A stretch of 64,000 nt of DNA from an uncultured Candidatus Poseidoniales archaeon. Lineage in GTDB: Archaea > Thermoplasmatota > Poseidoniia > Poseidoniales > Thalassarchaeaceae. The DNA lies in the NCBI GenBank assembly GCA_902511005.1, contig CABXDN010000001.1, positions 106,593 to 170,592 of the forward strand, in the 5' to 3' direction. The notes under the pieces were generated by a model. That model saw only the letters and a list, made by a program, of their open reading frames with translations, was not told the origin of the DNA and searched no databases. Below, one piece after another: positions 10,334-28,497 of the stretch; positions within the stretch are counted from its first letter, which is position 1; each line of letters opens with the position of its first letter. A program made the translations under genes and the position numbers.

Positions 10334-10417
10334 TATACACTGGCAAATGTATGTTCTCCTTCAACCCTACCCCTATTAGTATGAAAAATAAGAAAACTAT
10401 TACGTGTTTAAAAAATA

Positions 10418-10606
10418 TGGTGGGGGCACTGGGATTTGAACCCAGATCAGCGGGTATCTTCCGCTCAGCGTGCACTCGGTAATTGCACGCTCTCGGGTTG
10501 CGACGGGTCAGCGCTCCAGTTGGTCATCAATACCATCAGATCACTTATTCGTCGTCATTCCCGTGCAACTGGAGCCCGCTGTACTACCAAGTTATACTAT
10601 ACCCCC
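10418..10606 (-). tRNA. trnW: tRNA-Trp (anticodon CCA) with a 113-nt intron after position 37; CCA encoded
   Basis: Hand-folded. Acceptor GGGGGTA/TGCCCCC, D stem GTAT/GTAC, anticodon stem GCGGG/CCCGC, loop CTCCAG|intron|A, T arm CTGGG-TTCAAAT-CCCAG, discriminator A, then CCA. The intron is 10456..10568. The mature length is 76 nt. Confidence 0.9.
10498..10568 (-). ncRNA. Box C/D sRNA embedded in the tRNA-Trp intron
   Basis: On the minus strand: C box ATGACGA (10558..10552), D' CTGA (10539..10536), C' TGATGA (10529..10524), D CTGA (10511..10508). Both guides are exactly 12 nt. A terminal stem TTGCACGGG / CCCGTCGCAA flanks the boxes. The D guide CAACTGGAGC is complementary to GCTCCAGTTG, which spans the anticodon loop and exon-intron junction. 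Confidence 0.8.
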
Positions 10607-10679
10607 AAGGGTATTCCTATCGAAAGACATCGCTCTTATGATGGTCTCGGTCTAGAGATTCTAAAATAAAATAAAAAAT

Positions 10680-13010
10680 TTATAATATTATCATAATAGG
10701 GCCGACTATTATACTGAAGAATATCCAAAGCCCAAGCACAGTACATGCTAATCCCCAAGCACGAGGTCTTAACCCCACGCTAAGAGACCCCATTATACGA
10801 GATATTTCTCCTGGGAGTGATGCTATAATTCCAAAGGTGACTACTACAATTCCTGCCATTATTGAGTAACCAATAAAGAAAAATATGCATATTAATACAC
10901 CTAAAAGACCAGATCTTGCAACCGCCCCAATTGCTTGGGGGATGGCACTTGGTGCCCTTAGCCACAGTAACCATGCAACCCATAATCCTAGATGGAGATC
11001 ATCTAAAAACCGATTTTCTTTCCTCCAGTCGCGATATCCGTCGGGAAGTTTTGAGTATATGTACTTACCAATAATCTCGATTTCTCTGATTCCTCCTCTA
11101 AATAGCATTGATAATCCATGATAAGATAACAATATGCTAAGTATTAATTCTATATATATCCAATAAGAACCTAAGCCAAAAGAAGAAAATAACGCTACTG
11201 GAAGAGCCCAAACCGCAAATCCAATACTAGATGCATACAGAGTTAATACAACCCCTGCGCCAGGTACAAGAGGAGTATCAGGAATCTTATACTTATCTCC
11301 TCTAGGCATTGCTAAAATCATTAAGGGTAAAAATGTAGTACTAAAAATAAGTCCAAAGACATCTAATGGGTTTTGACCTGATCCAAAATAAGAGGATTCG
11401 ACAGCATCTTCAATAGATTGTGAAGACATTACACCTGCCTTCCATGAGGAAATAAATCCGGCTGAATCAATAATGAAAACAGCATCAGAAGCCTTACTAG
11501 GGAATGATTTCCCAATAGTTGAATCTGCATCATCCATTAGTACCGGCCAACTGCCATTAATTTCACTTACTAGTTCTTCAAGATCTAGACTATTGACGCC
11601 CTCTCCAGTTGCAATTTGAAGAAAAGCAACGTCGCTTCCAATTGCGTTCTGAGCAAGTTCAAAGTCGACTCTCTGAATCTCTGCATTTGGAGAACTTGGA
11701 GTGAATAAACCTACTACTATCGCATCATAATCTGAAATTAGCTCACTTAATTCAACTAATTCAGATTCAGAGCCATGTTCATATAACGAAAATGATGGAG
11801 CGGCACCCTCCATTCTTGGTTCATCAAAATCTATGTCAGGTAGGTTCAATGATGGCCCTAAAGTAGTCAAAGCAAGCAATAGAATTACTCCATACGCAGG
11901 AAGAGGCAGCATAGCATCTTTCATTGAAACTCCGATCCATGCAATAATTCCTAGTGGGATTAATATTGCAGCCCAAGTTCCATTCAATAATGCCTTTTCA
12001 GGTTCTAATACTTCAAATCTCAAAACCCCTACTAAGTCACAACTTTCTCCTGGATCTTGATCAGATAATTTATAACAACTATCTACCATATATTTCCCAG
12101 GTGACAATGATTTTGGAGAAGACCAAGTGAATACGGTTCGATTGAATTCATCAGTTCTATATCCGTGAGGAATCTCAAAATGATCTAATCTCGTATCTTC
12201 ATCAGCATTACCATGAATGAGGTCTGCCCATTCAACAGGACCTATCACTTCCAATACCTGAGATATGTAAAGGTCATTCCCCCAAGGTGAGTTAGGTGTG
12301 AATTCCACTCTAATTATACCATTTGGATCAACGGTTTGATCAAGCTCAGGATAAATTAATTCTCCCTGGAAATCAATCCCAGTGATAGCATCATAGGTAT
12401 CCCACCATAGTACTCCTGTTTGTGTACAATCATGTATTACATCAACCTTTAAACCTACTAAATCGCCTTTCTGAAGGCTGACATTGACGTCATTAGCATC
12501 AACAATAAATTCATGAGCCAAAGTAAATGATTCTTCCATTACTATTGAATTACTCTCAACGGATGATAATACTTGATTATCGCCTAATGATAGCGATACT
12601 GAAAATTTTGTTTCGGAACCCAGAGGAGAATCCGGCAATACATTTGTGAATCTGCAACCATCGTTGGCAACATCCAGAGATGCAAAAAGACGTATGCTTA
12701 TGTTTCCATTAAAATCTAAATCTTCTTCCAACGGTGCAGATTGAATATCTATTAGATTCTGTGGACTTACCGTTTTCTGAAAATCAATCGAACCTATTGG
12801 CTGACCTGTCAACGAACTCCAATTGTTATCTAAATATGGGCCATTCGAATCTCCTTTCAGGAAAAGTCGATGGCTTTCCGGTTTCTCCCATTCTATGCCT
12901 GGTCCTTCAGGCGCTATTATTTGGGCTGATGACATATGAGTAAAAGATAGAAAAACAAGTAAAAACATAGATAATGATACAAACACCTTGTTTGACCTTC
13001 TACCATCCAT
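10680..13010 (-). CDS. Hypothetical large membrane protein: signal peptide, extracellular domain, thioredoxin-fold (TlpA/ResA-like) module without CxxC, C-terminal polytopic region
   Basis: 776 aa. N-terminus MDGRRSNKVFVSLSMFLLVFLSFTHMSSAQ. The central segment FSLYEHGSE..IVVGLFTPSSPNAE..WPVLMDDADSTIGKSF..AVFIIDSAGFI follows the TlpA-like pattern, but SPNA replaces CPPC. There are at least 8 hydrophobic helices. Confidence 0.5.
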   Translation of the reverse strand: MDGRRSNKVFVSLSMFLLVFLSFTHMSSAQIIAPEGPGIEWEKPESHRLFLKGDSNGPYLDNNWSSLTGQPIGSIDFQKTVSPQNLIDIQSAPLEEDLDFNGNISIRLFASLDVANDGCRFTNVLPDSPLGSETKFSVSLSLGDNQVLSSVESNSIVMEESFTLAHEFIVDANDVNVSLQKGDLVGLKVDVIHDCTQTGVLWWDTYDAITGIDFQGELIYPELDQTVDPNGIIRVEFTPNSPWGNDLYISQVLEVIGPVEWADLIHGNADEDTRLDHFEIPHGYRTDEFNRTVFTWSSPKSLSPGKYMVDSCYKLSDQDPGESCDLVGVLRFEVLEPEKALLNGTWAAILIPLGIIAWIGVSMKDAMLPLPAYGVILLLALTTLGPSLNLPDIDFDEPRMEGAAPSFSLYEHGSESELVELSELISDYDAIVVGLFTPSSPNAEIQRVDFELAQNAIGSDVAFLQIATGEGVNSLDLEELVSEINGSWPVLMDDADSTIGKSFPSKASDAVFIIDSAGFISSWKAGVMSSQSIEDAVESSYFGSGQNPLDVFGLIFSTTFLPLMILAMPRGDKYKIPDTPLVPGAGVVLTLYASSIGFAVWALPVALFSSFGLGSYWIYIELILSILLSYHGLSMLFRGGIREIEIIGKYIYSKLPDGYRDWRKENRFLDDLHLGLWVAWLLWLRAPSAIPQAIGAVARSGLLGVLICIFFFIGYSIMAGIVVVTFGIIASLPGEISRIMGSLSVGLRPRAWGLACTVLGLWIFFSIIVGPIMIIL

Positions 13011-26878: not shown

Positions 26879-26955
26879 TGGTGGACGAGCCGAGATTTGA
26901 ACTCGGGGCCTCTTCTTAGCCAAAGAAGCGCGCTTCCAAGCTGCGCCACACGCCC
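26879..26955 (-). tRNA. trnA: tRNA-Ala (anticodon GGC), CCA encoded
   Basis: Hand-folded. Acceptor GGGCGTG/CTCGTCC with the G3:U70 alanine identity pair (one U6-U67 mismatch). D arm GCGC-AGCTTGGAA-GCGC. Anticodon arm CTTCT-TTGGCTA-AGAAG. T arm CCGAG-TTCAAAT-CTCGG. TTAAAT (26981..26986) lies about 26 nt upstream, and T-rich tracts follow downstream. Confidence 0.85.
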
Positions 26956-28420: not shown

Positions 28421-28497
28421 GGGCGATTGGTGTAGTCTGGATATCATATCGGCCTTCTAAGCCGATGACATGGGTTCGAATCCTGTATCGCCCACCA
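28421..28497 (+). tRNA. trnR: tRNA-Arg (anticodon TCT), CCA encoded
   Basis: Perfect 7-bp acceptor GGGCGAT/ATCGCCC. Anticodon arm TCGGC-CTTCTAA-GCCGA. T arm ATGGG-TTCGAAT-CCTGT (two G-U pairs). Discriminator A, then CCA. Confidence 0.85.

Follow-up and report, generated by a model that had tools for sequence, protein, structure and literature searches.

The tRNA-Trp intron of a Candidatus Thalassarchaeum genome: a probable orthologue of the euryarchaeal box C/D guide for C34, with a probably vestigial D' half

Known tRNA-Trp intron guides and the spread of the family

The introns of euryarchaeal tRNA-Trp genes nest a box C/D RNA (PMC4090602, PMC11408192, PMC7714728, PMC7994747), and the system has been known since 2001 (Clouet d'Orval 2001; Singh 2004; Joardar 2008; summarised in PMC4090602, PMC11408192 and PMC7714728). 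In Haloferax volcanii the intron acts in trans to guide the formation of Cm34 and Um39; when it is deleted, both modifications disappear but growth is not impaired (PMC11408192, PMC4090602, PMC7714728). The role proposed for Cm34 is to restrict C34 to pairing with G, so that UGA is not read (PMC7668247). The Rfam family sR3 (RF01133) corresponds to the tRNA-Trp intron guide of Archaeoglobus, Geoglobus, Aciduliprofundum and Methanomicrobiales, and the Pyrococcus counterpart is sR50 (PMC7994747). The tRNA-Trp intron of Sulfolobus solfataricus is a stable circle that shows complementarity to its own tRNA at positions 34 and 39 (PMC3326292), but it is without consensus C/D boxes, whereas in the intron described here the boxes are clear and the complementarity to nt 39 is gone.

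This intron lies in the genome of a Marine Group II archaeon of the genus Ca. Thalassarchaeum (Poseidoniales, Thalassarchaeaceae; 1.30 Mb, 38.6% GC, 72% complete). Coordinates without a contig label refer to the window, the whole stretch of 64,000 nucleotides that was analysed. We consider the intron, with a probability of roughly 0.82, to be the Ca. Thalassarchaeum orthologue of the euryarchaeal pre-tRNA-Trp box C/D guide, its D' half having become vestigial. It shares with the H. volcanii intron the canonical 37/38 position in tRNA-Trp(CCA), a length of about 100 nt, a complete C/D/C'/D' guide, a D guide that spans the 5' exon-intron junction with its position 5 on C34, and the mutual exclusion of guide pairing and splice-site fold. 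Compared by description, it differs from the H. volcanii intron in that its D' guide misses nt 39 and that nt 39 is C rather than U.

The sR3 model matches the C/D core with 28 bits (E value 2e-5), below its gathering threshold of 41. It scores 45-66 bits inside the tRNA-Trp introns of Archaeoglobus, Geoglobus, Aciduliprofundum, a Thermoplasmata MAG and Methanomicrobiales, which identifies it as the model for introns of this kind; scores under the threshold are also seen in Poseidonia, Natrinema, Methanobacterium and a Methanomassiliicoccales MAG. The box order agrees with that of sR3 and sR50, as does the D guide core (UGGAGC-N-CUGA), which stands at an equal distance from box D, and the D' guide of relatives of this genome has the GGGU core aimed at C39. 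The present intron departs from sR3/sR50 in its box C variant, its longer D'-C' spacer and its decayed D' guide, and it is about 50 nt longer than the introns of the sR3 lineages (61-65 nt).

A pattern scan for the anticodon, box C', the C34 guide core and box D, with one genome per prokaryote species, returned at least 120 loci. Among the matches listed, 97 lie in an intron-containing tRNA-Trp according to ARAGORN, 16 are bacterial chance matches as judged by their record titles, and the loci span Methanobacteriales, Methanomicrobiales, Halobacteriales, Archaeoglobi, Thermoplasmata, Methanomassiliicoccales and Poseidoniales. An equal architecture was found in the tRNA-Trp introns of Halobacteriales, Methanomicrobiales, Methanobacteriales, Archaeoglobi and Thermoplasmata. 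The introns of Methanobacteriaceae are in the single-guide state seen here, with a D guide on C34 and a D' spacer (e.g. AAAGUGCGCACU) that has no complementarity to nt 39, but they are shorter (66-80 nt), have a degenerate box C (UGAAGA) and belong to a different lineage; their single-guide state looks like an independent loss, to judge from the sequences compared. The C34 guide is kept in the tRNA-Trp introns of Methanobacterium, Methanothermobacter and Methanosphaera (L043, L063, L083, L116 and others).

The tRNA-Trp gene, its intron and the D guide

The minus strand from 10606 to 10418 carries a complete tRNA-Trp(CCA) gene with an encoded 3' CCA (10420..10418), split by an intron after nt 37. 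The 5' exon (nt 1-37) occupies 10569..10606, with the anticodon CCA at 10572..10570 and C34 at 10572; the 113-nt intron (10456..10568) follows G37 at the canonical 37/38 position, and the 3' exon runs from A38 to CCA (10418..10455). This partition was proposed in a preliminary description made from the letters alone, and two programs agree with it: the Rfam tRNA covariance model, whose failure would have counted against that description, accepts 10421..10606 (minus strand) with 47.3 bits and a 117-nt insertion in the anticodon loop, and ARAGORN in its intron mode (-i) reports tRNA-Trp(cca) i(39,113), i.e. a 113-nt intron. In the alignment of 28 orthologues the intron is orthologous, over its full length, to the introns of 27 relatives. 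The default mode of ARAGORN and a whole-window Rfam scan at gathering thresholds both missed the gene; this is a matter of sensitivity and no sign of gene absence. Upstream of the tRNA, ~45-70 nt from its start, there is an A/T-rich, TATA-like stretch (10607-10680, minus strand), and the CCA end is directly followed by a run of six T (10405-10417, minus strand), as expected for an archaeal promoter and terminator. In sister genera tRNA-Arg(UCU) and tRNA-Ala(GGC) are found ~0.3-1.5 kb from tRNA-Trp (loci L022-L024), whereas here 16-18 kb separate it from these genes (26879-26955, minus strand, and 28421-28497, plus strand), which indicates a local rearrangement or insertion.

Read 5' to 3', the intron consists of the strand UUGC-ACGGG, box C, a 12-nt spacer, box D', a 6-nt linker, box C', a 12-nt spacer, box D and the strand CCCGU-C-GCAA, followed by an 8-bp hairpin and, up to the 3' splice site, the strand GCG-GAAG-AU. 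All features lie on the minus strand. Box C (AUGACGA, with C at position 5 where the consensus has U; 10552..10558), box D' (CUGA, 10536..10539) and box C' (UGAUGA, 10524..10529) are invariant within the genus; box D (10508..10511) is CUGA here and CCGA in many relatives and in haloarchaea. The 12-nt D' guide CGAAUAAGUGAU occupies 10540..10551 and the 12-nt D guide CCAACUGGAGCG occupies 10512..10523. The terminal stem is formed by ACGGG (10560..10564) and CCCGU (10503..10507), with a possible extension of UUGC (10568..10565) to GCAA (10501..10498); in the orthologue alignment 113 of the 115 cells of the stem ACGGG/CCCGU are paired. All four boxes, spacers of ~12 nt and the terminal stem, the features by which members of the family are recognized, are thus present, and the complete C/D architecture given in the preliminary description (ATGACGA, CTGA, TGATGA and CTGA at DNA level, 12-nt guides and a closing stem) is found where that description placed it. 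Its other coordinates are equally correct, including the inverted repeat 10513..10522 versus 10566..10575 and C34 at 10572.

Within the genus, per-site diversity is 0.06 in the D guide, 0.11 in the D' guide and 0.21-0.29 in the loops, 0.04 in box D and 0 in the other boxes. The variable sites of the D guide are the unpaired position 1 and position 8, at which the change is compensated. The UGACGA variant of box C also occurs in haloarchaeal tRNA-Trp introns: the homologues of Natrinema, Halorientalis and Halovivax share with Poseidoniales both a UGACGA-type box C and a CCGA-type box D, so that such departures from consensus are normal for the family. In the haloarchaeal sequences, however, the extra length lies between D' and C', whereas here about 40 extra nt form the hairpin 3' of box D (10467..10491), which separates the C/D core from the 3' splice-site strand. 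Every Poseidoniales representative has such a hairpin, with differing stem sequences.

The D guide (10513..10522; positions counted from box D) and its target (10566..10575) form ten contiguous Watson-Crick pairs. Guide positions 2-11 pair with G31, the anticodon-loop nucleotides C32-G37 and the first three intron nucleotides, and position 5 falls on C34 (10572). Computed pairing therefore upholds what had been read by eye, namely ten pairs over the anticodon loop and the start of the intron and, by the N+5 rule, the selection of C34 by the fifth guide nucleotide upstream of box D. The preliminary description had also proposed a comparison of orthologous loci, in which the complementarity might be lost. 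The orthologous gene was collected from 28 genomes of the order Poseidoniales, which give 23 distinct sequences; the complementarity is kept, with covariation, and 10/10 pairs are present in 23/23 distinct sequences. In two species G37 is replaced by A, and a C>U change in the D guide compensates for it (G-C to A-U). RNAalifold, run on the alignment without constraint, gives the helix between D guide and target as the main consensus helix. The pairing is not due to chance, given its retention in 23/23 distinct orthologues together with one compensatory change. The D guide also shows nine contiguous Watson-Crick pairs with nt 2727-2735 of the 23S rRNA (C12:13754-16644), with its fifth position on C2731; since 42 of 300 shuffled guides score at least 9, this match is treated as chance.

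A bulge-helix-bulge fold compatible with splicing, which the preliminary description had called for at 10568/10569 and 10455/10456, exists at both junctions. It comprises the 5-bp anticodon stem, a 3-nt bulge, a four-position central helix, a second 3-nt bulge and a 3-bp outer helix (UGC/GCG), and its 3' strand (GCG-GAAG-AU) lies at 10456..10464. GCG pairs with intron nt 2-4, and GAAG stands opposite C32-C35, so that the central helix has three pairs and one mismatch (C32-G, U33-A, C34·A, C35-G); AU and A38 make up the 3-nt bulge in which the 3' splice site lies. If the anticodon stem serves as flanking helix, the splice site in each 3-nt bulge follows the second nucleotide. The C34·A mismatch occurs in 23/23 Poseidoniales sequences as well as in Archaeoglobus and several other lineages, whereas the central helix is perfect in Methanomicrobiales, Aciduliprofundum and Natrinema (CUCC/GGAG in the last). 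Because minimum free energy folding of the single sequence recovered neither cloverleaf nor guide helix, constrained folds and the alignment were used. The constrained minima are -66.0 kcal/mol for the splice-competent fold and -65.7 kcal/mol for the guide-bound fold, and such near-equal modelled energies fit a switch between the two.

Decay of the D' guide, loss of the intron and rival readings

In Haloferax and Pyrococcus the fifth position of the D' guide falls on nt 39, and this is not so in Ca. Thalassarchaeum, where the D' guide forms Watson-Crick pairs with the 3' junction at positions 4 and 5 only, throughout the genus. The element is for this reason placed as an orthologous single-guide derivative and not as a full member of the dual-guide class. 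A complementarity search agrees with the preliminary description that the D' guide has no convincing match to nt 39 or elsewhere in the pre-tRNA. In sister genera and in other families of Poseidoniales the D' guide is CGAGUGGGUUUG or a close variant. Guides of the CGAGUGGGUUUG type form 7-9 contiguous pairs with the last intron nucleotides, A38 and C39-U44, with position 5 on C39, and in the sister genera this pairing covaries at one position (guide U/A against A/U at intron position -1). Since the guide for nt 39 is intact in sister genera and other families, the ancestral state is taken to be the classic dual guide. Within Thalassarchaeaceae the D' guide is met in successive stages: intact, with an 11-nt spacer, with a single G>A or G>U change in the GGG core, and fully decayed. 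The spacer has 11 instead of 12 nt in several members (L056, L143, L154, L175, L178, L179), which moves the fifth guide position from C39 to C40. A replacement guide for nt 39 was sought elsewhere in the genome, and none of the eight seed matches lies beside a C-type box.

Loss of the whole intron is also found in the order. Intron-less tRNA-Trp(CCA) genes were read in four relatives, two of the same family, Thalassarchaeaceae, and two of Poseidoniaceae (L157, G038:C24; L158, G026:C1; L159, G020:C101; L160, G024:C17), and exon-only matches to tRNA-Trp occur in further members of a sample of 201 Poseidoniales genomes. The guide is accordingly dispensable in the order. In the intron-less genes the anticodon stems differ from GCGGG/CCCGC, which is invariant in intron-bearing species. 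Fibrillarin is still encoded in all four intron-less relatives. A search for a stand-alone C34 guide in five relatives (these four and G031, in which the tRNA-Trp query was unmatched) gave none that is convincing. The single match, in a relative with an intron-less tRNA-Trp (L165 1501-1521; G020:C62:2690-2710), reads GUGACGA-N4-UGGAGCA-CCGA and could pair over 8 nt with the mature tRNA (G31-A38), C34 being opposite its fifth position. This stretch falls within a 134-aa ORF that has no Pfam match, is without further boxes and is probably due to chance.

Having lost nt 39, the D' guide could have been re-aimed in trans at a new substrate, be it an rRNA, another tRNA, another stable RNA or an mRNA, and the preliminary description had suggested action in trans. 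Boxes C' and D' have been preserved along with the 12-nt spacing, positions 1-5 and 10-12 of the guide are constant within the genus, and the guide is less variable than the loops, so that some residual constraint is possible. The variation that does occur, with three variants in the genus, falls on positions 6-9, however, the core of any guide duplex; one species has a 1-nt deletion, and the sister genera show every erosion stage of the nt-39 guide, as expected for drift. The proposed search for targets was made in the 16S and 23S rRNAs and 34 tRNA genes: the best score was 8.5, which 69 of 300 shuffled guides equalled or beat, and the 5S rRNA holds no better match. Weak candidates are tRNA-Pro(UGG), with ten pairs including three G·U, and the 23S rRNA around nt 1952, but the best matches differ among the three variants of the genus. 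Re-aiming is thus unlikely, and the suggested action in trans finds no backing, since relatives show a decayed nt-39 guide and no target among rRNAs and tRNAs beats the shuffled controls. The screen covered rRNAs and tRNAs; RNase P RNA and SRP RNA were sought but not found in the 72%-complete assembly. Capture of the D' half for a lineage-specific trans target beyond the rRNAs and tRNAs screened, such as RNase P RNA, SRP RNA or an mRNA, is very unlikely; if true, it would mean a tRNA intron hosting a guide for another RNA. On the sequences compared, the D' guide is most likely a vestige and no trans-acting guide. Archaeal C/D RNPs need both halves at a fixed distance, and boxes C' and D' and their 12-nt spacing have most likely been kept because a two-sided RNP needs them for efficient work of the D guide.

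One might go further and regard all of the box C/D motifs as relics and the intron as merely a splicing substrate, with no guided methylation in this organism. The proteins needed for a C/D RNP are nevertheless encoded in the genome, with fibrillarin (152 bits) adjoining Nop5 (98 bits) and L7Ae (72 bits) present, all above Pfam cut-offs. Across the order, moreover, all four boxes, like the D guide and the terminal stem, show either no change or compensated change, the double change in guide and target included, while the neighbouring loops and the D' guide drift. The non-consensus box C and the sR3 score below threshold (28 versus 41) would fit decay, but the box variants are common to haloarchaeal relatives of H. 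volcanii, where the intron guide works (PMC7714728). There remain on the side of decay the intron-less relatives of the same order and the deletion of the H. volcanii intron without an effect on growth (PMC11408192). On balance we hold the view that the motifs are relics to be highly improbable. The evidence supports the reading of the intron as a homologue of the Haloferax pre-tRNA-Trp system, a putative box C/D sRNA whose D guide would select C34 of its own tRNA. The supposition that a Haloferax-like arrangement is conserved here is supported by the anatomy, the covariation across the order, the sub-threshold sR3 match and the presence of the C/D proteins and the endonuclease.

Proposed mechanism and significance

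The gene would be transcribed as an intron-containing precursor, on whose C/D and C'/D' motifs L7Ae, Nop5 and fibrillarin are predicted to assemble. The 12-nt D guide would pair with G31 to intron nt 3, either within the precursor or in trans from another precursor or an excised intron, and fibrillarin would then 2'-O-methylate C34, opposite the fifth guide position. The RNA may refold to the nearly isoenergetic bulge-helix-bulge, the endonuclease would cut at 37/38 and the exons would be ligated; the excised intron is probably circularised. The D' half is thought to have guided methylation of nt 39 ancestrally and may still do so in sister genera, and here it appears to have mutated away from its target. 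Methylation of C34, RNP assembly and splicing are all inferred. The tRNA splicing endonuclease is represented by a 336-aa ORF with a PF01974 match of 48 bits in its C-terminal part (catalytic domain). Short contigs from RNA libraries of three marine studies cover the unspliced gene, with ends near the gene ends (10415-10614, 10417-10578, 10427-10593); they contain no spliced or circular joints, forms that contigs cannot show reliably, and as evidence they are a weak hint of precursor transcription that cannot prove it.

A relaxed, crude scan of the 1.30 Mb for C/D/C'/D' motifs gave the tRNA-Trp intron as the sole complete match, so that box C/D guides may be very few in this organism. An elongator-type tRNA-Met(CAU) gene (contig C4:25667-25818) has a 76-nt intron, compared with 75 nt in the H. 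volcanii tRNA-Met intron; it contains two CUGA motifs and a 5-bp match to its own anticodon loop and is without a consensus box C. The 16S rRNA gene (C1:85470-86941) lies ~30 kb from tRNA-Trp and the 23S and 5S genes lie on another contig (C12:13534-16644), so that the rRNA genes appear unlinked.

The element is textbook archaeal RNA biology in a new lineage, and its main value lies in annotation: because default tRNA finders and the Rfam scan miss the gene and sR3 misses the guide, Marine Group II genomes may wrongly appear to be without tRNA-Trp and C/D guides. What is new is limited to the decay of the nt-39 guide in this lineage, one of an order in which whole introns have been lost as well. 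Poseidoniales present side by side the dual-guide intron, stages in the erosion of the nt-39 guide, a pure C34 guide in this genus and intron-less genes. This series suggests that selection acts much more strongly on Cm34 than on Nm39 and that the guidance of Cm34, too, can be lost, which agrees with its dispensability in H. volcanii.
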